NCBI GenBank assembly: GCA_044226485.1
Contig: JBGAGY010000007.1
Coordinates: 195,060 to 259,059, forward strand
Reading direction: 5' to 3'
Origin: Anaerolineales bacterium
GTDB taxonomy: Bacteria; Chloroflexota; Anaerolineae; Anaerolineales; UBA6663
Length of the DNA stretch: 64,000 nucleotides
The notes beneath the pieces were generated by a model. It made no database searches. It saw only the letters and a program-made list of their open reading frames with translations, and was not told where the DNA came from. This document shows, piece after piece, positions 5,830-63,924 of the stretch. How positions within the stretch are numbered: the first letter of the stretch is position 1; every line of letters starts with the position of its first letter. The position numbers and the translations under genes were made by a program.

Positions 5830-5903
5830 GGGGCGATGAAACCGGAACCGGTCGTAGGCACCGGCCCGACCGATGCCATCGGCCCGGTTGTGCCGTCACC
5901 CAC

Positions 5904-5941
5904 GACGAGGGCCCGACTCTTGCGAGAGCCTGGCCCTCGTC
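5904..5941. terminator. hairpin between convergent genes (possible bidirectional terminator)
   Basis: GACGAGGGCC (5904-5913) pairs with GGCCCTCGTC (5932-5941), with additional inner pairing CTCT/AGAG. No clear U-tract on either strand. Confidence 0.35.
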
Positions 5942-6082
5942 ATGGGCATGGGGCAGCCTTCGCATCGACCACCTGCGCCAGATCGCAACGCCTTGTCAAC
6001 CCAGCCGCGCCTGGGGGGCCAGAGAAGAACTCCCAGGCAACGGCTAGAAGCGTGCCAGGCAGCTGCTGAGGGCAACGGCATG

Positions 6083-8883: not shown

Positions 8884-9027
8884 GGTACTATTTCAAGCAC
8901 GTTACATTGAGTTGAGCGACGTGAGTTGGCTGCGAGGGGCCGGAACTGAGTGAGGGCGCTGTTGATAGCGCCCACCCTGACGAAAGCTTTGGTTGCCTGC
9001 TGACGAAACTGATGTGCCTGGGGTCGA

Positions 9028-16221: not shown

Positions 16222-16243
16222 TCGATGCGCCGAAAATCAACCC

Positions 16244-16273
16244 ACAGGCATCATCCCTCCGGTTGATGCCTGT
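16244..16273 (+). terminator. intrinsic terminator after the MalT-like gene
   Basis: ACAGGCATCA (16244-16253) pairs with TGATGCCTGT (16264-16273), followed by GTTTCTATTTG. Confidence 0.6.
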
Positions 16274-16488
16274 GTTTCTATTTGTCCCTAACATCCTCAT
16301 CATCACAGGAACTCGGGAATCCGAAACCAATTGAACTGAACATAGACTGGCGTTGTTCGCGACCTACACATCGCGCGGGCCTTGATCAGACGGCCCAGGC
16401 CGACGCCAGTGATGTTCCGCCACCGGTATCGGCGTTTCCCGACCTCCTGCGCACGATCGAAAACCGCTAGAAGATCCGAGAAAAACCG

Positions 16489-18430: not shown

Positions 18431-19825
18431 ATGAACATCATCGTCCTGAACGGCAGCCCCAAAGGTGAGTTGAGCATCACCATGCAGTCTGTCGCCTACC
18501 TGGCCAAGCTGTATCCCCAGCACGCATTCAAGGTTCACCACATTGCGCAACGATTGCGACGCCTGGAGAACGACACGAAAGCTTTCGACGCCGTCATTGG
18601 CGATGTCCGATCTTCTGACGCGGTGCTGTGGGGCTTTCCACTGTACATCCTTCATGTGCATGCCAACTACAAGCGGTTCATCGAGCTCATTGCCGAGCGC
18701 CAGGTCCAGGATGCGTTCAGAGGGAAGTACGCGGCCTCGCTATCGACGTCCATTCACTTCTTTGACCATACCGCCCACAACTACATCCATGGCATCTGCG
18801 ATGACCTTGACATGCGCTTCGTCGACTCATTTGCGGCGGACATGTATGACCTGTTGACAGACGAGGGCCGCCAACAGCTTGAGCTCTTCGGCCGACAGTT
18901 CTTCGAAGCGGTCCACAACCAGATCCCTGTTCAGCGCCACTACCTGCCTCTCAAAGCCAGCGCGTTCAGCTACCAGCCGGTTCTGGCAACAGACCCTGCC
19001 GCCACCCAGGGCAAGAAAGTGGTCATCCTGCATGACGCTCAAGAGGATGACGGCAACCTGATCAACATGGTCAGGCGTTGTCGCGGCGCGTTCTCAGACG
19101 AGGTTCAGGTCGTCAACATCCACGACATCAGCATCAAGTCCGGCTGCCTGGGCTGCGTGGAATGTGGGTCCAACTACCGCTGCGCGCTCAGCGACACCGA
19201 CGATTACATCGAGTTCTATAGGTCGACGGTGATGACCGCGGATGTGTTGATCTACGCCGGCCGAATGGTGGATCGTTTTCTCTCAGCGCGATGGAAGATG
19301 TTCTTTGACCGCATCTTCTTCAACACCCACACCCCGGTGTTGGTCGGCAAGCAGGTTGCCCTTGTGGTGTCGGGTCCTTTGAGCCAGGAACCTAACTTGA
19401 TGGAGGTGTTCCGGGGTTTCTTCGAGTTTCAGGGCGCCAATCTCTCAGGCGCGGTCAGCGACGAGTGCGGATCATCTGAAGACCTCGACCGTCTCCTCGA
19501 CCAGTTGATGCACCAGGCGCTGGCCTATGCTCTGAACGGTTACCGGCGTCCGCAGACCTTCCTCGGCGTGGGAGGCATGAAGATCTTCCGCGATGACATC
19601 TACGGCCGCTTGCGGACGATCTTTCCCGCCGATCACCGGGCGTACAAGCGAAACGGCCTGTACAACACATTCCCGCAGGTGGATCTGGGCACCATGATGC
19701 TCAACACGTTTGGGATGCCCATCCTGAACCTTCCGCCGATCCGCAAGAAATTCGACAAGATGATCAAGAAGCAGATGGTCGAGCGCCACAAACAGGTGGT
19801 TGCTAAGGCAGCCCCATCGCTCTAG
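18431..19825 (+). CDS. tandem flavodoxin-fold (NAD(P)H-dependent FMN reductase / WrbA-like) protein
   Basis: The N-terminal MNIIVLNGSPKG is typical of FMN_red. The second module carries KKVVILHD... and the COG0655-like Cys motif GCLGCVECGSNYRCALSDTDD. Confidence 0.8.
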   Translation: MNIIVLNGSPKGELSITMQSVAYLAKLYPQHAFKVHHIAQRLRRLENDTKAFDAVIGDVRSSDAVLWGFPLYILHVHANYKRFIELIAERQVQDAFRGKYAASLSTSIHFFDHTAHNYIHGICDDLDMRFVDSFAADMYDLLTDEGRQQLELFGRQFFEAVHNQIPVQRHYLPLKASAFSYQPVLATDPAATQGKKVVILHDAQEDDGNLINMVRRCRGAFSDEVQVVNIHDISIKSGCLGCVECGSNYRCALSDTDDYIEFYRSTVMTADVLIYAGRMVDRFLSARWKMFFDRIFFNTHTPVLVGKQVALVVSGPLSQEPNLMEVFRGFFEFQGANLSGAVSDECGSSEDLDRLLDQLMHQALAYALNGYRRPQTFLGVGGMKIFRDDIYGRLRTIFPADHRAYKRNGLYNTFPQVDLGTMMLNTFGMPILNLPPIRKKFDKMIKKQMVERHKQVVAKAAPSL

Positions 19826-21403: not shown

Positions 21404-21490
21404 CCGTGTGGGTTCGCGCCCATGTGGTCCGATCTGTGAACGACTTGCACACCGCGAGCAACGCAGTGGTGTGACCAGGTAGATGCAGAC

Positions 21491-21520
21491 GGGGCCCGAC
21501 TCTTTAAGGAGTTGGGCCCC
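21491..21520 (+). terminator. terminator-like hairpin after the Lnt-like gene
   Basis: GGGGCCCGACTC pairs with GAGTTGGGCCCC (one G-T pair) around loop TTTAAG, followed by a moderately T-rich tract. Confidence 0.45.
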
Positions 21521-21609
21521 GCCTGTTGATGTTTCCTGGCGTCCAAGGTGATGGCCTGGTGTTTGTTGCCCGACCGGCTCGTCAACAGCGGACAGAGCAC
21601 TTGATGGAG

Positions 21610-50775: not shown

Positions 50776-50877
50776 GTGCAAACCCTGGGGGCACGGGCCA
50801 CGCGGCGTCAACGTCGCAGGGTATGGCCCGCCATACGCAGCCCGTTCCCCGGGCCGCGCACGTTCGCGGAGGGTGTG

Positions 50878-51345
50878 ATGCGCACTTATAAGGTTCCTGA
50901 GAAACCCAACAACAAAGGACTCAACCCGATCTGGCGCGGCGTGGGCCTCGTGATCCTGGTCGCCCTGACGGTCGGTAGCTATTTCGCCGTCAGCAGTGGG
51001 ATCAAGGTCATCAACGCCGCCAATCGGGAGAAGGTTTTTCTGCCGGCGCCGTTTGGCGCTGCCGGCGTCCCCACGCTCGAGCTTCAGCTCGGCACTTACA
51101 CGTTTCCGCGCCCGGTGAACGAGTGGCCCGTGCCCGGTTATGGCCCGTTCAAGCTGTCCGAGCCTCTGCGTCAGATCGGCCCGGTGTCCGTCGAGGTCAC
51201 CAGCCTGGCCCTGACCGTGCTCGTCAGCCTGCTCGCATACGCCCTCATGTCCCTGGTCTGGGGCATCCTGGCGAACCCCACTCAGCTCGGTCCGCAAGAC
51301 GCCCCGCCGCCGCCCCGCAAGCGCCGCACCAACATGGCGCGTTAG
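50878..51345 (+). CDS. small two-TM membrane protein, function unknown
   Basis: MRTYKVPEKPNNKGLNPIWRGVGLVILVALTVGSYF... plus a second TM near the C-terminus. GGAGGG lies upstream of ATG 50878. Confidence 0.6.
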   Translation: MRTYKVPEKPNNKGLNPIWRGVGLVILVALTVGSYFAVSSGIKVINAANREKVFLPAPFGAAGVPTLELQLGTYTFPRPVNEWPVPGYGPFKLSEPLRQIGPVSVEVTSLALTVLVSLLAYALMSLVWGILANPTQLGPQDAPPPPRKRRTNMAR

Positions 51346-51378: not shown

Positions 51379-51442
51379 GACGAATGACGAAGGACGAAGG
51401 TTGAGTGAGACAACCTTCGTCCTTCGTCCTTCGTCATTCGTC
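51379..51442. repeat. heptamer-periodic hairpin repeat, copy a (GACGAAG units, 3 vs 4 units in the arms)
   Basis: Left arm GACGAAT-GACGAAG-GACGAAG-GTTG, loop AGTGAGA. The right arm is the complement of GACGAAT-(GACGAAG)x3-GTTG. Lies between convergent genes. Confidence 0.9.
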
Positions 51443-51472
51443 GAACTGCGGTCGGCGGTCCGCCGTCGACCC

Positions 51473-52648
51473 TTACTTCCCCGAATTCCGCGTCGCCACG
51501 TCGAAGATCACGGCCGCGACCAGGACAGCGCCACGCAGGATGTACTGGTAGGCGATGCCGGTTCCCATCAGGTTCATGCCCGAGATCAAAGAACCCATCA
51601 CCAGAGCGCCGATGAGCGAGCCGGTCACCTTGCCGACGCCGCCCGCCGCCGACACGCCGCCGACATAGGCCGCCGCGATCGCGTCGAGCTCGAACAGATT
51701 GCCGGCCGTGGTCGTCGCCGATTGCAGCCGCGAGGTGAAGAGGATCCCCGAGAGCGCCGCGAGCATGCCCATTGAGCCGAACACCACATACGTGATCCGG
51801 CTGAAGCTGATGCCGCTGAGCTCGGCCGCCTCCGGGTTGCCGCCCACGGCGTAGATGTGCCGGCCGAGCACGGTCTCGGAGGTGATGAAGTGGTACAGGC
51901 CGACGATGATCAGGACGACGACCACCGTCCACGACAACCCGTTGTAGCCGGCCATGACCCAGGTGACGCCAGCCAGAATCAGCGAGACCACCACCAGCTT
52001 GACCATGAATATCTGGGAGGGCAGCACCTCGAAGTCGTACGACTGCTTCTTGCGCCGGTTGTTGAACTCACTGGCGATGTAGAGCACGATCGCCACAAGG
52101 CCGATGACCAGGGTCAGCACATGCACGCCAGCGCCCTGCACGATGTCCGGGATGTACCCGTTGCCGATCGCGTTGAAGATCGGATCGGGCACAATGATCG
52201 TGCCGGTGCCTTCGGTGGCGAGCAGCAGGGCGCCGCGATAGATCAGCCAGCCGGCCAGCGAGGCGACGAAGGCCGGGATTTTCATCCGTGCGACCAGGAA
52301 GCCCGTGATCAGGCCGCCAAACGCGCCGAGGACGAGCACCAACGGAATCGCGACGTAGACCGGCAACGACCAGGCGGTCAGGGCGATCGCCGCCAGCGCG
52401 CCGATGAAACCCGCCAGGAAGCCGACCGAGAGGTCGATCTGCCGGATGACGATAACGAGTGTCATGCCGACCGCGAGCACTGCGATGTACCCGGTCTGGT
52501 TGAACAGGTTGCTGATGTTGCGCGACGACAGGAACACGCCGTTGGTCAACACCCCGAACATGACCATGATCACGAACAGGGCGATCAACATCCCGTAGTC
52601 GCGGATGTTTTGGCGCAGGACTTTGCCAAGGCTCTGGGTAAATGACAT
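51473..52648 (-). CDS. CUT2 sugar ABC transporter permease (XylH/GguB-like)
   Basis: 391 aa, about 10-12 TM, typical family sequence. 12 nt downstream of the ATPase gene. Confidence 0.9.
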   Translation of the reverse strand: MSFTQSLGKVLRQNIRDYGMLIALFVIMVMFGVLTNGVFLSSRNISNLFNQTGYIAVLAVGMTLVIVIRQIDLSVGFLAGFIGALAAIALTAWSLPVYVAIPLVLVLGAFGGLITGFLVARMKIPAFVASLAGWLIYRGALLLATEGTGTIIVPDPIFNAIGNGYIPDIVQGAGVHVLTLVIGLVAIVLYIASEFNNRRKKQSYDFEVLPSQIFMVKLVVVSLILAGVTWVMAGYNGLSWTVVVVLIIVGLYHFITSETVLGRHIYAVGGNPEAAELSGISFSRITYVVFGSMGMLAALSGILFTSRLQSATTTAGNLFELDAIAAAYVGGVSAAGGVGKVTGSLIGALVMGSLISGMNLMGTGIAYQYILRGAVLVAAVIFDVATRNSGK

Positions 52649-52660
52649 CTTCGGCTCCCC

Positions 52661-54181
52661 CTAGTTCGTGGCCAGGTGCATGATCTTTTCTTGCGTCGCC
52701 TCGCCGATCGGCATTTCGCCGGCGATCCGTCCAGAGGCGACGATATAAATGCGATCGCTCATGCCCAGGATCTCGGGCAATTCAGACGAGATCATGAGGA
52801 TGCTCAGGCCTTGCTGAACGAGCTGATTCATGATCGTGTAGATCTCGTACTTCGCGCCGACGTCGATGCCGCGCGTCGGTTCGTCAAGGATCAGCAGGCT
52901 CGGGCTGACGAACAGCCACTTGCCCAGCGATACTTTCTGCTGGTTGCCGCCGCTCAGGTTGCCCACGGTCTGCTCGACGCTCGGCGTTTTGATGTTCAGC
53001 GATGAGCGATAGCCGTTGGCAACCTGGATTTCGCGGTTGGCGTCGACCACGCCGCGCTCGGCGAGCGCGCGCAGGTTGGCCAGGCTGATGTTCTGCTTGA
53101 CGTCCTGGATCAGGATCAGGCCGTCTCCCTTGCGGTCTTCGGTGACGTAGGCGATGCCGGCGCGGATGGCGTCCTCCGGCGTGCGCAGATCGCGGCGCGA
53201 TCCGTTGAGGTAAAGCTCGCCATTCAGCCGGTAGCCATCCGGGTTTCCGAAGACGCTCAGCGCGAGTTCAGTACGGCCGGAGCCCATCAGGCCGGCGAGC
53301 CCGACGATCTCGCCCTTGCGCACGTTGAGGTTCACGTCGCGCAGGATGCGGCGGCCACTGCCCGACTCGATGGCGTTCCAGTCGCGCAGTTCGAGCACCG
53401 TCTCGCCGAATGCGTGAGCCTCGCGGGCCGGGTAGACGTTGTCGATCTCGCGGCCGACCATGTGCTTGATCAGCATGCCCTCGGTGACGCTGTCGCCTTC
53501 CTTGTCGAGCGTGCAAATCGTCTGCCCGTCGCGCAGCACCGTGATGGTGTCGGCGATGGCCATGACCTCTTTGAGCTTGTGCGAGATCATGATGCAGGTC
53601 ACGCCGTGGGTGCGCAGATCGCGCAACAGGTCGAGCAGGTTGGCGCTGTCGTCCTCGTTGAGCGCCGCGGTCGGCTCATCGAGGATCAGGAGCTTGACGT
53701 CCTTGCTCAGCGCCTTGGCGATCTCGACAAGCTGCTGCTTGCCGACGCCGAGCTCGCGGATCGTGGCCGCCGGGTTGACGTTCAGACGCACCTTCTTGAG
53801 CATCTCGACCGACTGTTTGATCGTCTCATTCCAGTCGACGAGCAAGCCGTTGCGGACTTCATGGCCCAGGAAGATGTTCTCGTAGACCGTCAGGTCGGGC
53901 ACGAGCGCCAGTTCTTGATAAATGATGGCGATGCCGGCGCGCTCGCTGTCGGCGATGCCCGAGAAGCGTTGAGGCACCCCGGCGAAAAGGATCTCGCCCG
54001 AATATGAGCCGTGCGGGTAGACGCCGCTGAGCACCTTCATCAGCGTCGACTTGCCGGCGCCGTTCTCGCCGACGAGGCAGTGGATCTCGCCCTCGGCGAC
54101 CTTGAAGCTGACGTTGTTCAGGGCTTTGACGCCCGGAAATTCCTTGGTGATGTTGCGCATCTCAAGGATCGGGGGTTTCAT
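52661..54181 (-). CDS. CUT2 sugar ABC transporter ATP-binding protein, tandem NBD (XylG/GguA/MmsA-like)
   Basis: 506 aa. NBD1 has GENGAGKST, LSVGKQQ-type signature and ILDEPTAAL; NBD2 has GLMGSGRTE, LSGGNQQK and LILDEPTRGID. Confidence 0.95.
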   Translation of the reverse strand: MKPPILEMRNITKEFPGVKALNNVSFKVAEGEIHCLVGENGAGKSTLMKVLSGVYPHGSYSGEILFAGVPQRFSGIADSERAGIAIIYQELALVPDLTVYENIFLGHEVRNGLLVDWNETIKQSVEMLKKVRLNVNPAATIRELGVGKQQLVEIAKALSKDVKLLILDEPTAALNEDDSANLLDLLRDLRTHGVTCIMISHKLKEVMAIADTITVLRDGQTICTLDKEGDSVTEGMLIKHMVGREIDNVYPAREAHAFGETVLELRDWNAIESGSGRRILRDVNLNVRKGEIVGLAGLMGSGRTELALSVFGNPDGYRLNGELYLNGSRRDLRTPEDAIRAGIAYVTEDRKGDGLILIQDVKQNISLANLRALAERGVVDANREIQVANGYRSSLNIKTPSVEQTVGNLSGGNQQKVSLGKWLFVSPSLLILDEPTRGIDVGAKYEIYTIMNQLVQQGLSILMISSELPEILGMSDRIYIVASGRIAGEMPIGEATQEKIMHLATN

Positions 54182-54213
54182 AGGCGGGTGGCTCCCTGAA
54201 CGCGAAGCGGGGG

Positions 54214-54247
54214 CAGGCGGGGCGAAGGTATTCCTTCGCCCCGCCTG
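54214..54247 (-). repeat. intercistronic 15-bp-stem hairpin after the binding-protein gene (minimal member of the heptamer family)
   Basis: CAGGCGGGGCGAAGG-TATT-CCTTCGCCCCGCCTG, 18 nt after the SBP stop and 32 nt before the ATPase start. No U-tract. Confidence 0.8.
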
Positions 54248-54265
54248 TTTCAGACAGTGGTTAGT

Positions 54266-55414
54266 TTACGGCAAACCGGTGAAGTCGGAAGCCTGGTAGT
54301 AGCCGGAGTCGATCAACGCGGCCTTGACGTTGTCCTTGTCGACCGAGATGACCTCGGACTGCTTGGCAGGGACGTCGATCTTGCCGTTGTTGTACGAGCC
54401 GGTCGTCGCGGGCTTCTCGTCCTTCAGCAGGGCCACGGCCATGGTAATGGCGTCGGCCACGAGCGTGCGGACGTCCTTGAAGACCGTCATCGACTGCTTG
54501 CCGTCGATGATGTACTGCACTGAAGCCTTCTCGGCGTCCTGGCCGGTGACGACGTAGGACGCGACGTCCTTGTCGGCGGCGAAGGCGTCGGCGATGGCGC
54601 GGGCCGTGCCGTCGTTCGGCGCGAGGATGAAGACGTTGCCCTTGTCGGCGGCGGCTGTGGCGGTCAGGTTGGCTTCAGCCAGGCCCTTGGCCGTGTTGAA
54701 GTCCCAGTTCGTCGTGACCTGGCCGATGATCGTGCTCATCTCATCGCGGCTCAGCTCGGCCTTGCCCTGCAGGGCCACGGCTTCGCTCGAGTTCTTGATC
54801 ACGTACGTGCCGTCAGCGATCTTGGGCTGCAGCACCGACCACGCGCCCTGGAAGAACAGGAAGGCGTTGTTGTCGGTCGCCGCGCCAGCGTAAAGGAAGA
54901 GCGGGTTGCCGGTGCCCGTGGTCTTGTTGACCAGGTACTGGGCCTGGGCGGCGCCCACTGCCACGCTGTCGAACGTCACGTAGTAGTCGACGGCGTCGGT
55001 GTCGGTGATCAGGCGGTCATACGACACGACCTTGATGCCGGCGGCGCGGGCGGCCTCAGCGGCGGCAGCGGCGGCAGCGCCGTCCTGCGGGCAGATGATG
55101 AGGACCTTGATGCCCTTGGTGATCAGAGCTTCGACGTTGGCCTTCTCCTTCGCGGAGTCGCCCTGGCTGAACAGGATCTCGACGTCGTAGCCGGCCTTGG
55201 TCAGCGCGTCCTTGAAGCGGGTCTCGTCCTGTACCCAGCGGGGCTCGTCCTTGGTCGGAAGCACGATGCCGACCGCGAGCTTCTCGCCCGTCTCGCCAGA
55301 ACCTGAAGGCGCGGCGGTGGGGGCGGCTGCCGGCGTGCAGGCGGTCATCAGAAGGGAAGCGCTGGCCACGAGGGACAGGGCACCCATAGCAAACCGATTG
55401 AATGTGCGACTCAT
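54266..55414 (-). CDS. ChvE-like multiple-monosaccharide ABC substrate-binding lipoprotein
   Basis: Signal plus lipobox LLMTAC. Whole-length resemblance to ChvE (VVSYDRLITDTDAVDYYVTFDSVAVG, DNNAFLFFQGAWSVLQPKI, VTGQDAEKASVQYIIDGKQSMTVFKD). SD AAAGGAGAG. Confidence 0.9.
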   Translation of the reverse strand: MSRTFNRFAMGALSLVASASLLMTACTPAAAPTAAPSGSGETGEKLAVGIVLPTKDEPRWVQDETRFKDALTKAGYDVEILFSQGDSAKEKANVEALITKGIKVLIICPQDGAAAAAAAEAARAAGIKVVSYDRLITDTDAVDYYVTFDSVAVGAAQAQYLVNKTTGTGNPLFLYAGAATDNNAFLFFQGAWSVLQPKIADGTYVIKNSSEAVALQGKAELSRDEMSTIIGQVTTNWDFNTAKGLAEANLTATAAADKGNVFILAPNDGTARAIADAFAADKDVASYVVTGQDAEKASVQYIIDGKQSMTVFKDVRTLVADAITMAVALLKDEKPATTGSYNNGKIDVPAKQSEVISVDKDNVKAALIDSGYYQASDFTGLP

Positions 55415-55500
55415 CTTTCTCTCCTTTAGATCATGCGGTTCGAACGAGGTGGATGCGATGGTCCGGTTTTTCTCGCGCGCATCACCTCCCTTCGTCAGAT

Positions 55501-56565
55501 CTAGTGGCTCGGATCGCTCAACGAGCCCAAAGTGTCTTGGATGACCTGCCGCAGCGCCGCCACGTCAAGGTCTTTTTTGTCGAGATAGGCCACGGCGCCG
55601 GCATTGAAACCGAGCCGTCGGAACTCCCGATCCGGGTAAGCGCTGATCAGCACGACGCGCGTCTCCGGCGAAATCGCCTTCAGGCGCCGCGTGCATTGGA
55701 TGCCGTCTTCATCGCGCAGCACTACGTCGATGAATGCCAGATGCGGATGGGTCCGCTCGGCCGCGACCAGCGCGTCGGCGATGTCGCCGGCTTCAACCAC
55801 ATGCGACGATGGATGAGTCTTGCCGATCAGCCGCGCCATCTGCTCGCGGTAGCGCGGGTTGTCGTCGACGAGCAGCACGTTCAGCTGCCCGGCCGGCCTG
55901 ACTTCGGGCACCTGGCTCACCGGCTCCGGATCGCGCAGCACATCCGGATAGCGCATCGCGAAGTTCGTGGCCTCGAGCCGGCTCTCGACCGCCAGCGATC
56001 GATACAGGCTGGTCAGGTGGTTCTCGACCGTCTTGACGCTCAGGTCCATCGCCTGCGCGATCTTGCGGTTGTCGAAGCCCTGCATCAGCAGCCGCAGCAA
56101 CTCACGCTGCCGTCGCGTGAGCACCGGCGTCGCTCGCGGCGGGGCGGGCTGACGGTGCACCAGCCGATCGACCAGTTGCGCCGGGATCCAGCGCTCGCCT
56201 GCCACAACGCGCGCCACCGCCAGCTGCAGGTCCGCCAGCGGCTGATCCTTCAGGTGGTAACCGTCCACGCCCGCGCCCAACAGACCTACCAGGTAGGCCT
56301 CGTCGGCGTAGGCGCTGACCACCAGGATCTTCATCGTCGGGTACTGTGTTTTGAAGGTGCGGACCGCCTCGACGGGCTCGAACTCCGGCATCGCCACGTC
56401 GATGACGATCAAATCCGGCTGCCACTCGGCCACTGCCGCGACAAGATCCGGCCCGTTGCCGACCTCGGCAACAACCTCGAGCTCGGGCCGGCCGGTCAGG
56501 GCGTTCCTCAGACCCGCCCTCACGACCGCGTGGTCGTCGGCGAGAACAATTCGAATGGCAGCCAT
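55501..56565 (-). CDS. response regulator with REC - LuxR/NarL HTH - REC architecture
   Basis: REC1 (LADDH..IVIDVAMP..VVSAY..YHLKD), HTH (LTRRQRELLRLLMQGFDNRKIAQAMDLSVKTVENHLTSLY), REC2 (LVDDN..AFIDVVL..LISAY..YLDKKD). Confidence 0.9.
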   Translation of the reverse strand: MAAIRIVLADDHAVVRAGLRNALTGRPELEVVAEVGNGPDLVAAVAEWQPDLIVIDVAMPEFEPVEAVRTFKTQYPTMKILVVSAYADEAYLVGLLGAGVDGYHLKDQPLADLQLAVARVVAGERWIPAQLVDRLVHRQPAPPRATPVLTRRQRELLRLLMQGFDNRKIAQAMDLSVKTVENHLTSLYRSLAVESRLEATNFAMRYPDVLRDPEPVSQVPEVRPAGQLNVLLVDDNPRYREQMARLIGKTHPSSHVVEAGDIADALVAAERTHPHLAFIDVVLRDEDGIQCTRRLKAISPETRVVLISAYPDREFRRLGFNAGAVAYLDKKDLDVAALRQVIQDTLGSLSDPSH

Positions 56566-56610
56566 ACCGTGACCCTTTCTATGTAACAGAACCCACCCCT
56601 TCAGGTCATT

Positions 56611-56638
56611 GGGGGATGCCCCCTAGGGGGATTTCCCC
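56611..56638. promoter_or_regulatory. G5-CTAG-C5 quasi-palindrome in the divergent control region (operator candidate)
   Basis: GGGGGATGCCCCCTAGGGGGATTTCCCC; the core CCCCCTAGGGGG (56619-56630) is a perfect 12-nt palindrome. Confidence 0.3.
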
Positions 56639-56679
56639 TAATGCGGAGTGGGCTAATCGGGTAGGAAAATGACGGAAGA

Positions 56680-56769
56680 GCGAGGAGCGTAGAGCGAGGA
56701 GCGAACGCTGCCGCGCAAGTTCGAGCGCGAGATCGCGGTAGCGTTCGCTCTTCGCTCTACGCTCCTCGC
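56680..56769. repeat. heptamer-periodic hairpin repeat, copy b (30-bp stem, 30-nt loop)
   Basis: Left arm GCGAGGAGCGTAGAGCGAGGAGCGAACGCT pairs with right arm AGCGTTCGCTCTTCGCTCTACGCTCCTCGC with a single G-T pair. Heptads are GAGCGAG/GAGCGTA/GAGCGAG/GAGCGAA. Confidence 0.9.
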
Positions 56770-56797
56770 CACTCGAGTATTATCTACCCAAGCCACC

Positions 56798-57880
56798 ATG
56801 CCTATTCGACTGGTCCTCTGCTCGATCCTCGTGTTCGTGCTGGTCGGCTGTGTCCCGCCGACGCCGGCGTCGACGCAGGGCAAGATCGCGTTGCTGTTGC
56901 CCGAGACGAAGACGACGCGTTACGAGTCGCACGACCTGCCGATCTTTCGCGCGCAGCTTGCCGCTCGCGGCTTCAACGTCGACCGTGACCTCATCTACAG
57001 CAACGCCACCCAGGATGCCGCGGCGCAGCAGCAGCAGGCCGAAGCGGCGCTGACCAACGGCGCGAAGGTGCTCGTCCTCGATCCGGTCGACTCCAGCTCG
57101 GCCACGGCCATCGCCGAGCTGGCCCAGTCACGCGGCGTTCCCGTGATCGCGTACGATCGATTGATCACCGACTCGTCGGCCGTCGATTACTACGTGTCGT
57201 TCGATAACGTCATGGTCGGGCGGTTGCAGGCCGAAGCGCTGCTCGACGCGCTCAAGGATGTGAAAGACCCGCGCATCGTGATGTTGAACGGCTCGCCGCT
57301 CGACAGCAACACGACCCAGTATCGTTTGGGGGCGATGGCCGTGCTGGGCAGCCGTGTGACGATCGCGCAGAGTTTCGACGTGCCCGACTGGAGTCCTGAC
57401 AAGGCCCAGGAGTTCATGGCCCAGGCGCTCACTGCCCTCGGCAATCGCGTCGACGGCGTCTACGTCGCCAACGATGGCATGGCCGGCGGCGCGATCGCGG
57501 CGATGAAAGCCGCGGGCCTCGAGCCACTGCCGCCCGTGACCGGCCAGGACGCCGAGCTGGCGGCCATCCAACGCATCCTCGTCGGCGAGCAGTACATGAC
57601 CGTCTATAAGGCGATCCACCGCGAAGCCACCGCCGCCGCTGACCTGGCCTACGTGCTCTGGCAGGGCGGCAAGCCGGACGAGGGGCTCTTCAACAGCCAC
57701 GTCGACAACGGGCGCATCAAAGTGCCCGCGATCCTGCTTCAACCCGTCAGCGTCACCCGTGATAACCTGCGCGCCACGATCTTCGCCGACAAGTTCTGGG
57801 ACCCGAGCGAGGTCTGCGTCGGCGAGGTCGCGGCCGCCTGCAGTGAGACCGGCATCGACCTCGGGGAGGGCGCTCCATGA
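56798..57880 (+). CDS. XylF-like sugar-binding lipoprotein (sensor-module binding protein)
   Basis: Signal plus lipobox VLVGC. Collinear with E. coli XylF (VIAYDRLITDSSAVDYYVSFDNVMVGRLQAEAL; GSPLDSNTTQYRLGAMAVL; VTGQDAELAAIQRILVGEQYMTVYKAI; NNGRIKVPAILLQPVSV). Confidence 0.9.
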   Translation: MPIRLVLCSILVFVLVGCVPPTPASTQGKIALLLPETKTTRYESHDLPIFRAQLAARGFNVDRDLIYSNATQDAAAQQQQAEAALTNGAKVLVLDPVDSSSATAIAELAQSRGVPVIAYDRLITDSSAVDYYVSFDNVMVGRLQAEALLDALKDVKDPRIVMLNGSPLDSNTTQYRLGAMAVLGSRVTIAQSFDVPDWSPDKAQEFMAQALTALGNRVDGVYVANDGMAGGAIAAMKAAGLEPLPPVTGQDAELAAIQRILVGEQYMTVYKAIHREATAAADLAYVLWQGGKPDEGLFNSHVDNGRIKVPAILLQPVSVTRDNLRATIFADKFWDPSEVCVGEVAAACSETGIDLGEGAP

Positions 57881-59088
57881 CCACCGCCGGCGCCAGCCAT
57901 CTGCCGCGTGTGCTCGGCCAGGCGTGGGCGCGCATCAACCGCCCTGACTTCGCCTACGTGCCGACCGTTGTCGGCCTCGCGTTGGTCTGGCTGGTCCTTC
58001 AACTCGTCAATCCCAACTTCCTCAGCCCGCTCAACCTGACCAACCTGATGCTGCAGATCGCGGCCATGGGCACGATCGCGGTTGGTCTCGTGCTCGTGTT
58101 GTTGCTGGGCGAAATCGACCTCTCGGTCGGCGTGGTCAGCGGCCTGGCCGCCGTCGTCATGGCCGTCCTCAACGTCAAGGCCGGCGTCCCCGGCACGATC
58201 GCGGTGATGGCCGGTGTCGGGACCGGGCTGGCGATCGGGCTCGTTCAGGGCAGCTGGATCACCAAACTGCGGATCCCATCGTTCATCGTCACGTTGGCAG
58301 GGCAGTTGGCCTGGCAGGGAGCTTTGCTGTACGTCCTTGGCAATACCGGCACCGTCAACCTGCGTGATCCGTTCATCCTCAGCCTGGCCGGCACGTTCTT
58401 CAAACGCGATGTGCCCGGCGGTGAGGCGCTGAGTTGGGTGATTGGCGGCGTGTTCGTCAGCGTGTACGCGATCGGGTTGGGGTGGGAACGTCGCCAGCGC
58501 TTGAGCGCCGGCCTTGCCGCGCGTTCGTTACGGGCGGTGATCGTGCAGGTGGTCGTGATCGCCGTCGCCGGGCTCGGCGCCATCGTGATCCTCAATGCGG
58601 ACCGCGGGTTGCCGTCGGCGCTCGTGTTGTTCATCGGCGTGGTGGTCGTGTTCGACTTCATCACGCGGCGGACGGTCTTCGGGCGCAGCATCGCCGTCGT
58701 CGGCGGGAACCCTGAGGCGGCCCGGCAGGCAGGCCTCGACGTCGACCTGATCCGCATCACGGTCTTCGGCCTGGCGTCGATGCTGGCGGCCTTCGGCGGC
58801 ATCCTGGCGGCCTCGCGTTTGCTGGCCGTTCACCAGGCCTCAGGCAGCGGCGACGTGTTGTTGAACGCCATCGCGGCCGCCGTCATCGGGGGTGTGAGTG
58901 TCTTCGGCGGCCGCGGCAGCGTGTGGTCGGCTGTCCTCGGCGCTTTGGTCGTCGGCTCGATCTCGAACGGCATGGATCTGCTCGTCGTGGCGGCGCCGGT
59001 CAAGTTCATGGTCACCGGGGCTGTGTTGCTCGGCGCCGTCACGCTCGACGTCCTGGCGCGTCGCCGTCGCATTGCCGCCGGCGAGTAA
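57877..59088 (+). CDS. CUT2 sugar ABC permease (XylH/RbsC-like)
   Basis: 403 aa polytopic. The start overlaps the upstream stop (ATGA), indicating translational coupling. Confidence 0.9.
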   Translation: MTTAGASHLPRVLGQAWARINRPDFAYVPTVVGLALVWLVLQLVNPNFLSPLNLTNLMLQIAAMGTIAVGLVLVLLLGEIDLSVGVVSGLAAVVMAVLNVKAGVPGTIAVMAGVGTGLAIGLVQGSWITKLRIPSFIVTLAGQLAWQGALLYVLGNTGTVNLRDPFILSLAGTFFKRDVPGGEALSWVIGGVFVSVYAIGLGWERRQRLSAGLAARSLRAVIVQVVVIAVAGLGAIVILNADRGLPSALVLFIGVVVVFDFITRRTVFGRSIAVVGGNPEAARQAGLDVDLIRITVFGLASMLAAFGGILAASRLLAVHQASGSGDVLLNAIAAAVIGGVSVFGGRGSVWSAVLGALVVGSISNGMDLLVVAAPVKFMVTGAVLLGAVTLDVLARRRRIAAGE

Positions 59089-59094
59089 GGGTTG

Positions 59095-59198
59095 TTGCCA
59101 CGAATGACACGACTTGAAAAGGATGGGCCCGGGTGGCCAGGTGAGTTGTCCGAGTCAACTGGGTGCCGGTTCGTTTCAATGTGTCCAATTCGTGGCAA
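59095..59198 (+). promoter_or_regulatory. long-range inverted repeat enclosing a structured intercistronic region upstream of the NBD::kinase gene
   Basis: TTGCCACGAAT-GACAC (59095-59110) is complementary to GTGTC-c-AATTCGTGGCAA (59181-59198): 16 bp with one bulge, enclosing 70 nt that include an inner AGTTG/CAACT hairpin. Confidence 0.35.
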
Positions 59199-59235
59199 AG
59201 CTCTTCGCTGACAGGGTATCCGATAGGAAGTGGAC

Positions 59236-60819
59236 ATGAGCGAACCTGTGCTCCGCGCACTTAACCTCTCGAAACGTTTCGGGCGCCTCTGGGCCCTCGA
59301 GAACGTCAGCTTCGAGGTGCAGCCGGGCGAGGTGGTCGGCGTCGTCGGTCGGCGTGCCTCGGGCAAATCGACCCTGCTGCACGTCGTCGCCGGAACGTAT
59401 CCGCCGCAGACGGGTGAGATCTGGCTGGGCGACCAGCGTCTGCGCTTCGCGGGGCCGCCGGCGTCGCGGCGGTATGGCATCGAGCTCGTTCATCAGCGTC
59501 CCGTCTTGTCCGATCAGATCGACGTCACCCAGAACATCTTCCTTGGACGCGATCGCAGCTGGCGCGCGCAAATCGGGTTCCCGGATCTGGCCTGTCAGGC
59601 GCGTCGCGCTCGCGAGTTGCTGGCCGAGCTCGATACTCCAGCGGATCTGCTCTACGCGCGGCTCGATGGCCTTTCGGACGAACAGCGTCAGATCGTGGCG
59701 TTGGCCAGGGCCTTCTGCCAGCCGGCTCGCGTCATCCTGCTCGACGAGGCGCTGGCCGCGCTCAGCTTCCAACGCCAGGAGCGCTGCCTCACGCTGATCC
59801 GACGCCTGTCGGCGCAGGGCATTGCCTTCCTCATCGCCAGCGACAACCTCAAGCACCTGTTCGAGGTGACCCACCGCATCCTCGTGCTCTACGAAGGGCG
59901 GCTTGTCGCTGATCAACCGACCAGCGAGGCCACGCCGCGCGAAATCGTCGAACGCATCGTCGGCGCCGCGCAACATGAGCAGGTGACGCCCGTGATCTGG
60001 GCGCTCGAGAGCTATCACCAGTTGCAGCAACAGGCTGAAGACCTGCGACGCAAGCAGACGGCGCTTCAGGAAGATCTGCAGGTACAGGGTTCGCTCAACC
60101 AGCAACTGCTTGTGCGGATGCGCAATCAGGTCGACGCGCTCGATCGGCTCAACGTCGCTCTGCAGGCCGCGCAGCGCCGCCTGATGACCGAACGCGAGCA
60201 GGAGCGCAAAGCGCTGGCTCGTGAACTGCATGACTCGATGATCCAGGACCTGCTCAGCTTCAACTACCGGCTCGAAGACCTCGAGGGCCACACCGCCGAC
60301 GTCCAGCAGCGCGCCGAGCTGGCAGAACTGCGCGAAGACATCCGCACCATCGTCAGCGACCTGCGCCGGCTGTGCAGCGACCTGCGCCCGCCGACGATCG
60401 ACAGCCACGGCCTCACCGCGGCGATTCGTTCGCACGCGCAGGAATGGGCTGACAAGCACCGCGTCGGCCTGGACCTCGACGTCGATAGCGCCCTCGGCCG
60501 CCTGCCCGAACCGATCGAGTTGTCGATCTTCCGCATCGTGCAGGAGGCGTTGAACAACGTGCGCAAGCACGCCTCAGCCCGGCATGTGCGTCTTTCGCTT
60601 CAGCGCACGGCGTCAGCGCACCTGCTCCTGCGCCTCGAAGATGACGGCCTCGGGATGACCGAGCCCGTCAACCTTGCGACTCTCTCGGCCACCAAACACT
60701 TCGGCCTGCTTGGGATCAGCGAACGCGTGGCCCTGTTGGGCGGCACCATGCGCGTCGACACCGCCCAGCAAGGCGGGGTGTCGCTCAGCATCGAGATCCC
60801 CAGCCCGTCGCCGACTTGA
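59236..60819 (+). CDS. ABC nucleotide-binding domain fused to HisKA_3/HATPase_c histidine kinase (NBD::HK)
   Basis: Residues 1-~245 are a single CUT2-type NBD (GRRASGKST, VHQRP, LSDEQRQ, VILLDEA). About 80 aa of heptad-rich helix follow. Then H-box LARELHDSMIQDL, N-box QEALNNVRKHA, DDGLGM and GLLGISERV. The ORF is uninterrupted. ATG 59236 is preceded by GGAAG (a GTG at 59230 is also possible). Confidence 0.85.
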   Translation: MSEPVLRALNLSKRFGRLWALENVSFEVQPGEVVGVVGRRASGKSTLLHVVAGTYPPQTGEIWLGDQRLRFAGPPASRRYGIELVHQRPVLSDQIDVTQNIFLGRDRSWRAQIGFPDLACQARRARELLAELDTPADLLYARLDGLSDEQRQIVALARAFCQPARVILLDEALAALSFQRQERCLTLIRRLSAQGIAFLIASDNLKHLFEVTHRILVLYEGRLVADQPTSEATPREIVERIVGAAQHEQVTPVIWALESYHQLQQQAEDLRRKQTALQEDLQVQGSLNQQLLVRMRNQVDALDRLNVALQAAQRRLMTEREQERKALARELHDSMIQDLLSFNYRLEDLEGHTADVQQRAELAELREDIRTIVSDLRRLCSDLRPPTIDSHGLTAAIRSHAQEWADKHRVGLDLDVDSALGRLPEPIELSIFRIVQEALNNVRKHASARHVRLSLQRTASAHLLLRLEDDGLGMTEPVNLATLSATKHFGLLGISERVALLGGTMRVDTAQQGGVSLSIEIPSPSPT

Positions 60820-60820
60820 G

Positions 60821-60869
60821 AGCGAGGGGAGGAGTGCGAGGGGCGAAGGGCGAGGGGCGAGGGGCGATC
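60821..60869 (+). repeat. heptamer tandem array, copy c (seven GGCGAGG-type units, no complementary arm)
   Basis: AGCGAGG GGAGGAG TGCGAGG GGCGAAG GGCGAGG GGCGAGG GGCGATC, starting 1 nt after the TGA of the NBD::HK gene. Confidence 0.9.
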
Positions 60870-61000
60870 AAGAAGGGCTTGACCGGACCGAAAGACAGAT
60901 CGCGTCTTGATGACGCTTCCGCGCGCATCCCACGTTGCCGCCGACTTCAAATACAATTCAGGAATCACGCAACGATCCGGCGATCGTCAAGGAAACCAAT

Positions 61001-61996
61001 ATGAAGGCCGTTGAAACGTTCACGCTCGAAGACACAAGCAGCGCGCGGTTGAGCGCCTCGCCCGAAGGGGTGCGCCGCTTTCAGGAGGCGCAATTCGGCC
61101 TCTCTGTGCACTGGGGCCTGTACAGCCTCGGTCACAGCGGCAATGAATGGACCTACTTCATCGATCGGATCCCGTTCGAAACCTATCGGTCCCGCATGAG
61201 CCAGTTCAACCCCGTGCGCTTCAATGCCGACGAGTGGGGCGACCTGATGCTCGAGGCCGGCCAGAAGTTCCTGATCATCACCACGAAGCACCACGATGGA
61301 TTCTGTCTTTTTGATTCGGCGCTGACCGAGTTCAAGAGCACGCGTGCGCCGTTCATGCGCGACATCATCGGTGAACTCGCGCCGGCGCTGGCCGCGCGCG
61401 GCATCGCCCTGCATTTCTATTACTCGCTGGTCGACTGGACCCATCCCGCCTACCGAAGCGATTGGCCGGCCTATGTCGCCTACTATCAGGGCCAGATCCG
61501 CGAACTGTGCACGCACTACGGCGAGATCGGCGGTTTCGTCTTCGACGGTTACTGGCCTCGCAACGTGTTGGAGACCGACGACGAACGCGACTACTTCGCG
61601 GCGCGCGGTGATTGGGACCTGGCCGGCACCTATGACCTGATCCACAGCCTGCAGCCCAACGCCGTCGTCGGCAACAACACTCATGTGCTGCCGATGCAGG
61701 GCGAGGACTATCAGGTGTGGGAGCTCGATCTTCCGGGCGAGAACACCATCGGCTTCAACACCACCGATGTCGGCAACAAGCCGCTGGCCTCCTGGTGGAA
61801 CATCAACGTCGGCTGGTCGTATCAACCCTGGAACCACCGTCTGCGCAGCGCCGACGACATCCTCGCGCTTCACCGCAAGATCCGCGAGCGCAACGCCACC
61901 TTCATCCTCAACGTCGGCCCGCGCCCGTGGGGCGACATCCACCCCGACGAGCAGAGTGTCCTGAGGCAGGTGGGGCAGGGGCTTCGAAAGGCGTAG
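61001..61996 (+). CDS. alpha-L-fucosidase (GH29 family)
   Basis: [12 protein letters not shown]...[33 protein letters not shown]...[14 protein letters not shown] is typical of GH29. Start set at ATG 61001 (MKAVETF). Confidence 0.85.
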
Positions 61997-62116
61997 AGCG
62001 AGGGGGAAAAGCGGGGGGCGAGGAGCGAGAGGCGAAGGGCGAGGGGCGAGAGGCGAAGGGCGAAGGGCGAAATTCGCGTAAGCGTTCGCCCTTCGCCTCT
62101 CGCCTCTCGCCCCTCG
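61997..62116. repeat. heptamer-periodic hairpin repeat, copy d (8+ units vs 4.5 units)
   Basis: Starts directly after the TAG of the fucosidase gene. The left arm has contiguous GGCGAGG AGCGAGA GGCGAAG GGCGAGG GGCGAGA GGCGAAG GGCGAAG GGCGAAA (62017-62072). Loop TTCGCGTAAGCG. Right arm TTCGCCC TTCGCCT CTCGCCT CTCGCCC CTCG (62085-62116). Confidence 0.9.
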
Positions 62117-62163
62117 TATGGTACAGTTCTCCTCCGACTCACAATCCCTTAGAAGGATCCCGA

Positions 62164-63000
62164 ATGCCCGCTCGTCCACCGTTTCCCGGCCAGCAGCCCG
62201 CGCCGCTGCTGACTCCGGCCAAGAAGATCATCGCCATCGCGTCCGGCAAGGGCGGCGTTGGCAAAAGCACAGTTGCCGCCAATCTCGCGGTCGCCATGGC
62301 GCGCGCCGGCCGTAAGGTCGGCCTGCTTGACGCCGACATCTACGGCCCGAACGCCCCGATCATGCTCGGCGCCAGCGACTACGCGCCGGTGGCCGTCAAC
62401 AACAAGCTGCCGCCCGCGCACGTGCATGGCATCGAGTTGTTCTCGATGGGCTTCATCGTGCGACCGGAGCAGGCCATCATCTGGCGCGGCCCGATGCTCG
62501 ACAAGGCCATCCGCCAGTTCGTCACCGACGTCGCCTGGGGCGACCTTGACGTGATGTTGATCGACATGCCACCCGGCACCGGCGACGCGCAGCTGGCGGT
62601 CTCGCAGTCGTTCGCGATGACCGGCGCTGTGATCGTCACGCTGCCGCAGGCAGTCTCGCAGGCCGACGCCCGGCGCGGCCTCGAAGGCTTCCGCGAGATG
62701 CAGGTGCCGATCCTGGGCATCATCGAGAACATGAGCTACATGCTCATGCCCGACGGCAGCAAGCTCGACGTCTTCGGCCATGGCGGCGGCAAGCAGCTGG
62801 CCCGCGACGCCGGTGCCGAGTTCCTGGGCGAAGTGCCGCTCGATCCGCAGGTGCGCGTCGGCGGCGACGCCGGCGTACCGGTCGTCGTCAGCCAGCCCGA
62901 GTCGTCGGTGGCGCTGGCTTTCGAGGCCCTGGCCCGCGCCGTCTACGAGCGCGCCGACGCCGAGCCCGACGACGGGCCGGTGACGATCTCGGAAATCTAG
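62164..63000 (+). CDS. Mrp/ApbC/NBP35 family Fe-S cluster carrier ATPase
   Basis: [42 protein letters not shown], and [33 protein letters not shown]. Start set at ATG 62164; the 427-aa track ORF is a read-through of repeat d. Confidence 0.9.
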
Positions 63001-63002
63001 CG

Positions 63003-63062
63003 GCGATGGGCGAGAGTCGAGGAGCGAGAGGCGCCTCTCGCTCCTCGACTCTCGCCCATCGC
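63003..63062. repeat. heptamer-periodic repeat, copy e (perfect 60-nt palindrome)
   Basis: GCGATGGGCGAGAGTCGAGGAGCGAGAGGC followed immediately by its exact reverse complement. It lies 2 nt after the Mrp stop and 7 nt before the next ATG. Confidence 0.95.
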
Positions 63063-63069
63063 TCTTCGC

Positions 63070-63924
63070 ATGACGATCCTCGCCCTGGGGCTCCTCCTCC
63101 TCTCAGCGGCGCTGCACGCCACCTGGAATCTGCTCCTCAAACAGGCTCAAGACAAACAGGCCGCCGCGTGGTGGGCCATGTTGTTCGGCGCTGCCCTGTT
63201 CCTGCCGGCCCTGGCTTTTTTTCCGCCGCTGCCGGCCTCGATCTGGCCCTTCGTGTTGGGAAGCGCCGCCGCCGAGGCAGCCTACTACTTCTTGCTGGCC
63301 ACGGCCTATGACGCGACGGATTTCTCAGTGGCCTATCCGATCGCGCGCGGCACCGCCCCAGGCCTGCTGGCGATGTGGGCGCTCGTCTTCCTCGGCGAGT
63401 CGCCAAGCCCGGCCGGTTGGGCCGGCATGGCGCTGCTGGCCGTCGGCCTGATGGTGACGGGCGGCGTGTTCTCGCGGCGCCCCGGTTCGGTGGGCCTCGC
63501 CCCGCGCGGCGTGCTCTATGCCCTCGGCGTCGCGGTCTGCATCTCAACGTACTCGATCATCGACGGCGCCGCCGTGCGGCAGGTGCCGGCGCTGCCGTAT
63601 ACGTCACTGGCGTTCCTTTGGACGGCCGTCTTCCTGACCCCGCTGGTCGCCTGGCGCTCAGGCTTCGCGGCCATGCGCGCCGAGGGTCGGCGGCATGCCG
63701 GCCGGCTGGCCCTGATCGGCGTGCTGTCGTTGACGGCCTATCTGCTCGTGCTCGTGGCCTATAGCTTCGCGCCGATCGCGTATGTCGGAGCGGTGCGCGA
63801 GCTCAACATCCTCTTCGGCGTGGCGCTCGGCGCGATCGTGTTGAAGGAACCTGTCGGGCGGGGGCGGCTGGCGGGCGTCCTGTTGATCGCCGCGGGCGTC
63901 CTCGTGATTGCGTTGGTCGGGTGA
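63070..63924 (+). CDS. EamA/DMT family transporter
   Basis: 284 aa, about 10 TM helices with two EamA-like halves. Confidence 0.85.
   Translation: MTILALGLLLLSAALHATWNLLLKQAQDKQAAAWWAMLFGAALFLPALAFFPPLPASIWPFVLGSAAAEAAYYFLLATAYDATDFSVAYPIARGTAPGLLAMWALVFLGESPSPAGWAGMALLAVGLMVTGGVFSRRPGSVGLAPRGVLYALGVAVCISTYSIIDGAAVRQVPALPYTSLAFLWTAVFLTPLVAWRSGFAAMRAEGRRHAGRLALIGVLSLTAYLLVLVAYSFAPIAYVGAVRELNILFGVALGAIVLKEPVGRGRLAGVLLIAAGVLVIALVG

Follow-up and report, generated by a model that had tools for sequence, protein, structure and literature searches.

How do very stable hairpins made of short tandem units arise between the genes of a bacterium, and what role could keep them there? The question is raised by a stretch of 64,000 nt from an Anaerolineales bacterium (Chloroflexota; Anaerolineae; UBA6663; GenBank assembly GCA_044226485.1, contig JBGAGY010000007.1, positions 195,060 to 259,059 of the forward strand), hereafter called the window. 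The last 13 kb of the window contain five very stable hairpins and one unpaired array, and four of the hairpins are composed of 7-nt tandem units. A preliminary description had taken these six intergenic sites, designated E1 to E6 (Table 1), for a lineage-specific family resembling repetitive extragenic palindromic (REP) elements. Judged from their sequences, the elements belong to a known class of bacterial intergenic heptanucleotide repeats, for which the unit GNCGARR and the Chloroflexota host are new. In addition, alignment with related genomes indicates that the elements are orthologous between relatives and hypervariable, changing by units. We favour, with a probability of about 0.55, the view that they are slippage-generated heptamer palindromes acting as 3'-end hairpins without a U-tract.

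Periodicity and pairing at the six sites

Tandem Repeats Finder detected period-7 arrays at 51379-51442, 56675-56769, 60822-60867 and 61985-62116. When the whole 64 kb was scanned for periods of 4 to 12, the four matches with period 7 all fell within the reported sites, and the remaining periods gave nothing except one match of period 9 (55049-55082, GCGGC-rich, inside a binding-protein gene). Four tandem GCGARNN units with at most two mismatches were found 20 times, against 0.03 expected from shuffled sequences, and all of these matches lie within four of the six sites. Tandem 7-nt units, which had been ascribed to all six sites, are present at five of them; the exception is E2, a plain 15-bp GC hairpin with one unit, and its membership in the family as a non-periodic hairpin is doubtful.

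Four of the sites account for all seven of the longest inverted-repeat pairs in the window, and an independent stem scan found no stem of at least 17 bp elsewhere in the window. In agreement with the preliminary description, five sites consist of a purine-rich arm followed by its complement: their 5' arms are 73-86% purine, the purine arm comes first in all five, and the z scores of the folds range from -7.6 to -11.3. The stem lengths of 15-32 bp given there hold at the lower end (E2) and fall short at the upper end, where E3 reaches 36 bp. E4 was implied to be unpaired, and indeed forms no hairpin (60817-60905, z +0.75). Pairing in the hairpins is nearly pure Watson-Crick, with 0-4 G.U among 25-40 pairs, and is equally stable on both strands. 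Selection on sense-strand RNA through G.U pairs was ruled out, since no consistent strand asymmetry was seen.

None of the six sites is followed by a T/U-tract, as had been noted before, and none is listed by a terminator scan. In the window as a whole, hairpins with a T-run are not in excess over shuffled sequences (13 vs 13.1, 13 vs 12.5 and 14 vs 10.0). At gathering thresholds Rfam gave no match to the window, and at E<=1 it gave only generic eukaryotic or viral miRNA-precursor hairpin models and one hepatitis C virus stem-loop, on both strands. The sites are significantly clustered, with six in 12 kb and none in 51 kb, corresponding to about 11 and about 35 intergenic gaps (Fisher p about 5e-5); period, inverted-repeat, pattern and stem scans agree that the first 51 kb hold no copy.

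The gene map of 50.7-64 kb is made up of open reading frames (ORFs) supported by Pfam, and with the genes on either side identified by Pfam, each of the six sites is intergenic. ORFs and Pfam also confirm the placement described earlier: E1 is convergent, E2 intercistronic and E3 divergent, and E4, E5 and E6 begin 0-2 nt past stop codons. A coding explanation of the arrays was ruled out. No Pfam family matches the ORFs that overlap the arrays, and the homologues of Mrp are 278 aa long and start at the position of ATG 62164, therefore the N-terminal extension of the 427-aa ORF 61717..63000 is spurious, as had been suspected. Such arrays are a hazard for annotation, yielding spurious ORFs rich in G, E, R and A and false N-terminal extensions.

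Table 1. Positions of the six elements and of the Pfam-supported genes around them (ABC, ATP-binding cassette)
Feature	Positions	Strand	Description	Setting	Inverted-repeat pair	RNA fold (kcal/mol)	z score
E1	51379..51442	.	heptamer hairpin, GACGAAT/GACGAAG x3, loop, CCTTCGT x4; arms 22-26 nt, 96-100% complementary	between convergent genes 50776-51345 (+) and ABC permease (-); 33 and 30 nt to stops		-45	-8.1
E2	54214..54247	-	perfect 15-bp GC-rich hairpin, 4-nt loop, single GGCGAAG unit per arm	19 nt past sugar-binding-protein stop, 33 nt ahead of ABC ATPase start (54181)	I15	-34.3	-7.6
E3	56680..56769	.	36-bp stem of GAGCGAG/GAGCGTA units, 18-nt centre	between divergent response-regulator and binding-protein genes; 8 nt upstream of conserved TATTAT box	I1	-83.8	-11.3
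E4	60821..60869	+	unpaired purine array GCGAGGG/GCGAAGG, ~7 units, without complementary arm	starts 1-2 nt past TGA of ABC-histidine-kinase fusion gene
E5 purine arm	61997..62075	+	~11 units of GGCGARG type	follows fucosidase stop	I3-I5	-82.7 (both arms)	-8.0 (both arms)
E5 pyrimidine arm	62085..62116	+	TTCGCCC/TTCGCCT/CTCGCCT..., 4.5 units	ends 5 nt ahead of conserved extended -10-like TGGTACAGT upstream of Mrp	I3-I5
E6	63003..63062	.	perfect 30+30 nt palindrome, no spacer, 100% complementary, GGCGAGA/GTCGAGG/AGCGAGA units	begins 2 nt past Mrp stop (63000), ends 7 nt ahead of EamA ATG (63070)	I2	-65.2	-9.7
ABC permease	51473-52648	-	Pfam
ABC ATPase	52661-54181	-	Pfam
Sugar-binding protein	54266-55414	-	Pfam
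Response regulator	55501-56565	-	Pfam
Binding protein	56798-57880	+	Pfam
Permease	57877-59088	+	Pfam
ABC-ATPase/histidine-kinase fusion	59230-60819	+	Pfam
Alpha-L-fucosidase	61001-61996	+	Pfam
Mrp/NBP35 ATPase	62164-63000	+	Pfam
EamA transporter	63070-63924	+	Pfam

The arms of E5 can pair in at least three registers of 7 nt, each giving a 32-bp stem. In addition, the fucosidase stop TAG (61994-61996) falls within a GGCGTAG unit of E5. This GCGTAG variant recurs in Anaerolineales arrays (61990-61996 and 56692-56700 of the window, 6520-6550 of the locus L004 and 45-70 of L210), and its TAG is the actual fucosidase stop in both E5 and L210, so the array extends into coding sequence. The spacer between the response-regulator and binding-protein genes, which holds E3, also contains TTGGGGGATGCCCCCTAGGGGGATTTCCCCTAA (56603-56646), a set of overlapping G5/C5 palindromes that is identical in the relative L001 while the neighbouring bases vary; this set is a likely operator or promoter for the LuxR-type regulator beside it.

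Turnover at orthologous sites and distribution of the arrays

The best homologues of Mrp, whose gene lies between E5 and E6, come from metagenome-assembled genomes (MAGs) of Anaerolineales. Five related lineages were recovered, with Mrp amino acid identities of 98% (L210), 93% (L001-L003, GCA_044224715.1, syntenic over 13.7 kb), 91% (L128-L130), 77% (L124-L126) and 71% (L127). Between the window and L210, the Mrp coding sequence is identical at 791 of 837 positions and the adjacent coding ends at 20 of 21 and 40 of 43, whereas the element downstream of Mrp is identical at 46 of 71 and the element upstream at 82 of 151. Elements that are 54-65% identical beside a gene that is 94.5% identical support slippage-type turnover. 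The expansion by heptamer slippage proposed in the preliminary description is thus supported, since relatives retain an element at the orthologous sites but differ in how many units it has and in which variants occur.

At the Mrp 3' site, which is E6 in the window, L210 has 32 consecutive pairs including 4 G.U (-64.9 kcal/mol) in reshuffled unit variants, and L001 has a perfect 23-bp stem with an 8-nt unit (GGGAGCGC/AGGAGCGC). A stem of ~25 bp is found in L128, a hairpin also in L130, and a perfect 26-bp stem with the unit ACAGGCGG in L124 despite a different downstream gene; nothing comparable was found at this site in L127. Upstream of Mrp, the ~11 purine and 4.5 pyrimidine units of the window compare with ~5 and 3 in L210, an unpaired (GGGCGAA)7 array in L128-L130 and a 14-bp GCGGGGAGCG hairpin in L001, and the TGGTACA(G/T)T box downstream of E5 is conserved in L001, L128 and L210. 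The hairpins of relatives therefore occupy the same intergenic positions with different units, different unit numbers and even a different period, which is 8 instead of 7 in two close relatives. Five of them have z scores of -4.1 to -12.1 against dinucleotide shuffles, the hairpin of L210 being given by energy alone. The flanks of E3 are ~90% identical between the window and L001, where the 36-bp stem is represented by a degenerate remnant (z -1.75), and the orthologous spacer of L001/L002 holds no counterpart of E4. The preliminary description had called for this comparison of orthologous intergenic regions.

The Mrp 3' position carries classical hairpin and T-tract terminators in many lower-GC orthologues, namely L131, L132, L163, L170, L171, L178, L179, L186 and L189; in GC-rich relatives, periodic hairpins are found there instead. 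In the L124 lineage, there seems to be more than one way in which spacers become filled with long hairpins. Its locus (JGI Ga0394876_0004519) has five non-periodic palindromes within 20 kb (5245-5357, 8941-9049, 11950-12050, 12757-12857 and 19088-19194), which are 96-100% complementary, have arms of 49-55 nt and loops of 3-7 nt, and each fill the whole or nearly the whole intergenic region. The palindromes at 11950 and 12757 are almost identical in sequence and thus represent a dispersed family of palindromic repeats.

Four exact GCGARNN units were searched across phyla in one genome per species, and at least 120 stretches were obtained. Among the matches listed, to which the following counts of GCGARNN arrays refer, arrays occur in Acidobacteriota, Planctomycetota, Bacteroidota, Verrucomicrobiota, Gemmatimonadota, Cyanobacteria, Actinomycetota, Alpha-, Beta- and Gammaproteobacteria and six Chloroflexota, including cultured isolates of Bradyrhizobium, Devosia, Shinella, Rhodoplanes, Vibrio and Streptomyces. 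These arrays are often purine-to-pyrimidine hairpins, and the claim of lineage specificity has to be abandoned. A complementary array lies within 200 nt downstream of 36 of the 129 arrays and upstream of 8, and 85 have none (pairing score threshold 13, reached by control flanks in at most 1 of 182 trials); inverted pairs make up about one third of the GCGAR arrays. After hairpins counted from both strands had been removed, 30 were purine-first and 9 pyrimidine-first (binomial p = 0.001). The stop codon of an ORF of at least 100 codons was found no more than 60 nt away from 23 of 26 purine-first hairpins, compared with 25% of random positions; this count is not significantly different from the ~75% that any intergenic site would give (p = 0.08), and is mainly a sign that the hairpins lie near gene ends.

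The period is more widespread than the unit. The loci of the GCGARNN matches contain 263 arrays of period 7, vs 5-18 for periods 5, 6, 8 and 9, and their heptamer units are unrelated to one another. Meanwhile, in 526 kb of metagenome loci (L130-L209) that were selected only for a relative of Mrp, tandem arrays of at least four units number 10 for period 7 and 0-1 for each of periods 5, 6 and 8-12. The many unrelated units and the excess of period 7 in the 526-kb sample suggest that the 7-nt period, unlike the CGAR core, is general; a universal CGAR core was ruled out by unrelated heptamers in the same genomes and in this repeat-blind sample. L169 alone has four arrays, with the units ATCAGTT and GGGTGTA, and in an Acidobacteria MAG (L073:2871-3261) the heptamers CAGTCGA, CAGTCGC, CAGTGGA and CCGTGGA are nested in a 42-nt higher-order repeat.

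Origin, upkeep and role

In the reading that we favour, replication slippage would add, remove and rearrange the 7-nt units of the arrays, as the orthologous sites strongly suggest, and the sequence of an element would consequently turn over far faster than the flanking DNA. Complementarity would be renewed by copying at the DNA level, either by intrastrand template switching or by conversion between the arms. Arms that stay nearly pure Watson-Crick despite fast turnover point to such copying rather than to slow compensatory mutation, and the perfect palindrome E6, which has no spacer, fits a restoration of pairing at the DNA level. Transcribed palindromes are predicted to fold into stem-loops of -34 to -84 kcal/mol, which would act against read-through, by termination or attenuation, and as a barrier to 3'->5' exonucleases. 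Since the arrays occupy the space immediately past stop codons, U-tract terminators show no excess in the window and the Mrp 3' site is equivalent in position to terminators elsewhere, a 3'-end role appears the most plausible, and the position of the hairpins makes a function as terminators or stabilisers plausible. E1 would serve both convergent genes bidirectionally, E2 and E6 would give differential stability or attenuation inside operons, and E5 would insulate the conserved Mrp promoter from read-through.

Several points weigh against this reading. For other GC-rich bacteria it is disputed whether hairpins terminate transcription when no U-tract follows. No 3' end would be expected at E3, which is flanked by divergent promoters and whose L001 counterpart is degenerate; E4 has no hairpin at all. 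E6 ends 7 nt from the EamA start, so a full terminator would silence EamA unless there is read-through. Moreover, scarce G.U pairs and equal stability of both strands would also be expected from a DNA-level process without selection on RNA. The unpaired E4 and the location of E3 indicate that the process generating the arrays also operates outside functional sites, and the problems posed by E3, E4 and E6 lead us to regard this process as primary and any function as co-option.

If function is removed altogether, the elements become a neutral or selfish by-product, in which slippage and palindrome-templated repair inflate arrays wherever selection allows, mainly in gaps between a stop and a promoter. 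Hypervariability between near-identical strains, the decay of E3 and absence of E4 in relatives, the preponderance of unpaired arrays across phyla, the many unrelated units within the same genomes, the occupation of whole spacers up to the coding boundaries and the purely Watson-Crick arms would all follow. We take this account seriously but consider it somewhat unlikely, as it leaves aside the persistence of the Mrp 3' hairpin in the window, L210, L001, L128/L130 and L124 despite near-complete sequence turnover, the purine-first bias, and the positional equivalence of the Mrp 3' site to canonical terminators of other lineages. The Watson-Crick arms, equally stable on both strands, could also indicate an element that works in DNA, through cruciform or slipped extrusion or through binding of a nucleoid- or topoisomerase-type protein as in bacterial interspersed mosaic elements (BIMEs), and that buffers supercoiling or insulates promoters. 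The spacer-less palindrome of E6, the conserved -10-like boxes adjoining E3 and E5, and the divergent promoters around E3 are in keeping with this. However, the copies have no conserved sequence that a protein could recognise, and a role in RNA is the simpler explanation for placement 3' of stops, which makes a DNA-level element quite improbable.

The remaining explanations concern particular features of some copies. A stretch of E4 (60836-60867, GGGG CGAA GGG CGA GGGG CGA GGGG) matches by sequence, with spacings of 3-4 nt, the pattern of a G-quadruplex with four or more runs of at least three G (G3+N1-7), as does the (GGGCGAA)7 array of L128-L130, and a G-rich arm that folds as a quadruplex in DNA or RNA would modulate expression, as has been proposed for the G3N4 heptamers of Xanthomonas and Nostoc (PMC4692102). 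Such folding has very little probability as a general account, given that E1 (GACGAAG), E3 (GAGCGAG) and E6 have no G3 runs and that a 30-bp duplex would outcompete a quadruplex in the paired elements. Spread by a REP-associated tyrosine transposase (RAYT, a Y1 transposase), as for REPs and their paired form REPIN, or by other hairpin-dependent mobility, might be suspected from several intergenic palindromes within 12 kb, from GCGTAG in E3 and E5, and from the dispersed 101-nt palindrome family of L124. It is barely credible: the copies have no common palindrome, GTAG is internal and present at only two of six sites, Pfam found no transposase, integrase, TnpB or Y1 (RAYT) domain among the 40 ORFs of the window, and relatives have the elements at orthologous positions, not as insertions. 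Miniature inverted-repeat transposable elements, integron attC sites and IS200/605 ends were likewise rejected, since the whole element is a palindrome, with neither terminal inverted repeats around a core, nor duplicated target flanks, nor a GTTRRRY attC core, nor genes of these kinds among the 40 window ORFs.

A bolder extension of the slippage and 3'-end reading would make purine-first heptamer palindromes cross-phylum, U-tract-independent, bidirectional stop or 3'-end elements. Their orientation would be set by the mechanism, in that a weak rY:dR hybrid during synthesis of the 3' pyrimidine arm would let the purine arm strip the transcript, and their pairing would be renewed by dedicated template switching coupled to 7-nt slippage. 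We think this unlikely to hold in full; if true, such elements would explain the over-representation of heptanucleotides in bacterial genomes. The purine-first bias by itself may reflect a weak pyrimidine-RNA:purine-DNA hybrid that favours hairpin-driven release, or else a greater tendency of G-rich nascent DNA strands to fold back.

Genomic setting and likeness to known repeat classes

The GC content is 0.59-0.62 over ~6-46 kb of the window, vs 0.63-0.69 at both ends. The 6-46 kb region is rich in STAND/NB-ARC and MalT-type LuxR regulators and methyl-accepting chemotaxis proteins, and also encodes a GGDEF-EAL protein, a pentapeptide protein and a chloramphenicol-phosphotransferase-like protein. 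Its spacers are long but have no heptamer arrays, and its gene ends bear short hairpins, some with T-rich tails (e.g. 16243-16274). Two intergenic hairpins of ordinary size, at 5899-5946 and 21486-21525, share the motif GGGCCCGACTCT in their 5' arms and may represent a second small repeat family. A tRNA-like stretch near 13.1 kb was rejected as an island boundary, as it has no tRNA or Rfam match. Among the genes near the elements, ORF 59230-60819 encodes the histidine-kinase domains HisKA_3 and HATPase_c joined to the ATPase domain of an ABC transporter, an unusual fusion of transporter and sensor; it lies downstream of a binding-protein/permease pair, is divergent from a response regulator with two receivers and GerE, and is conserved in the 93% relative (L001:6012-7595). 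In the same relative, the adjacent stretches L001:171-1177 and 1209-2215 both match positions 54276-55282 of the window, in the binding-protein gene, at 90% and 81% and are called as one 781-aa gene, reflecting either tandem duplication and fusion or an artefact of assembly where the contig ends.

Similar to canonical intrinsic terminators, the window hairpins are GC-rich and directly 3' of stops. In contrast to them, they have no U-tract, their stems are 15-36 bp long rather than about 5-12, and they are periodic and symmetric, so potentially bidirectional.

REP stem-loops in ABC-transporter operons of Escherichia coli, to which the proposed 3'-end role would be comparable, stabilise the 3' ends of mRNA or terminate transcription in part, and the position of E2 resembles those of the malE-malF and hisJ-hisQ REPs. 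The REP, BIME and REPIN elements of Enterobacteria and Pseudomonas are also intergenic palindromes past gene ends and between ABC-transporter cistrons, without a U-tract. To this extent, as structured intergenic repeats in REP-like positions, the sites deserve the name REP-like given to them earlier; membership among the REPs is not supported. REPs carry a GTAG or CGTC tetranucleotide at one end of the palindrome (PMC3733652), whereas among the window elements GTAG is confined to the interior of E3 and the fucosidase stop of E5, and is absent from E1, E2, E4 and E6. The window copies do not share a palindrome of 20-40 nt, and their arms differ at all six sites beyond NNCGARR. Unlike those of REPs, the arms are internally periodic and very variable in length, they turn over by unit slippage and not by transposition, and the window ORFs include no RAYT.

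The short tandemly repeated repetitive (STRR) sequences of cyanobacteria and the TAACTGA repeats of Beggiatoaceae (PMC4679880) are closer in being intergenic tandem heptamers with a scattered phylogeny and several unit types per genome. However, they are essentially direct repeats (one indirect set in 170 in Beggiatoaceae), often lie upstream of start codons and are richer in AT. Heptanucleotides are the most abundant longer simple sequence repeats (SSRs) in most genomes, and 7 nt may be the stretch that touches the polymerase during slippage (Mrazek et al. 2007, as cited in PMC4692102 and PMC4679880).

The closest likeness is to the heptamers GGGAATC of Xanthomonas and GGGGA(C/T)T of Nostoc. 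According to Rehm et al. (2015, PMC4692102), GGGAATC has about 185 copies per genome, of which 89-93% are intergenic, with the upstream ORF on average 28 nt away and the downstream ORF 160 nt away. The same study gives 70-75 inverted pairs 'in convergent orientation' that are able to form stem-loops, a position that is 83% conserved between two species with changing length, and transcription of most copies; it reports no link to mobile elements and a function that 'remains to be elucidated'. For Nostoc, a preprint describes upstream heptamer repeats that alter reporter expression and gives no mechanism. The preliminary view that the unit differs from its precedents is correct for GNCGARR, but the kind of element, heptameric SSRs that occur singly or as inverted pairs, has already been described in Xanthomonas and Nostoc (PMC4692102). 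A literature search with exact unit strings returned a single match, which concerned pseudorabies virus and is irrelevant.

The elements of the window share with these repeats tandem 7-nt units in which a core is conserved and other positions vary, intergenic location (~90% there) near the stop of the upstream ORF (E3 being the exception here), many inverted pairs with the G-rich or purine arm first, a position conserved among related species with varying length, and no associated mobile genes. Models of such repeats have to account for hairpins kept at orthologous gene ends while the sequence and even the period are replaced, for Watson-Crick arms, and for a strong purine-arm-first bias across phyla. 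Unlike the G3N4 repeats, the window unit is GNCGARR (GGCGAAG, GGCGAGG, GAGCGAG, GACGAAG), and most copies would be unable to form a quadruplex. The window thus adds to this class a Chloroflexota case in which the paired hairpin form, seen at five of the six sites, dominates.

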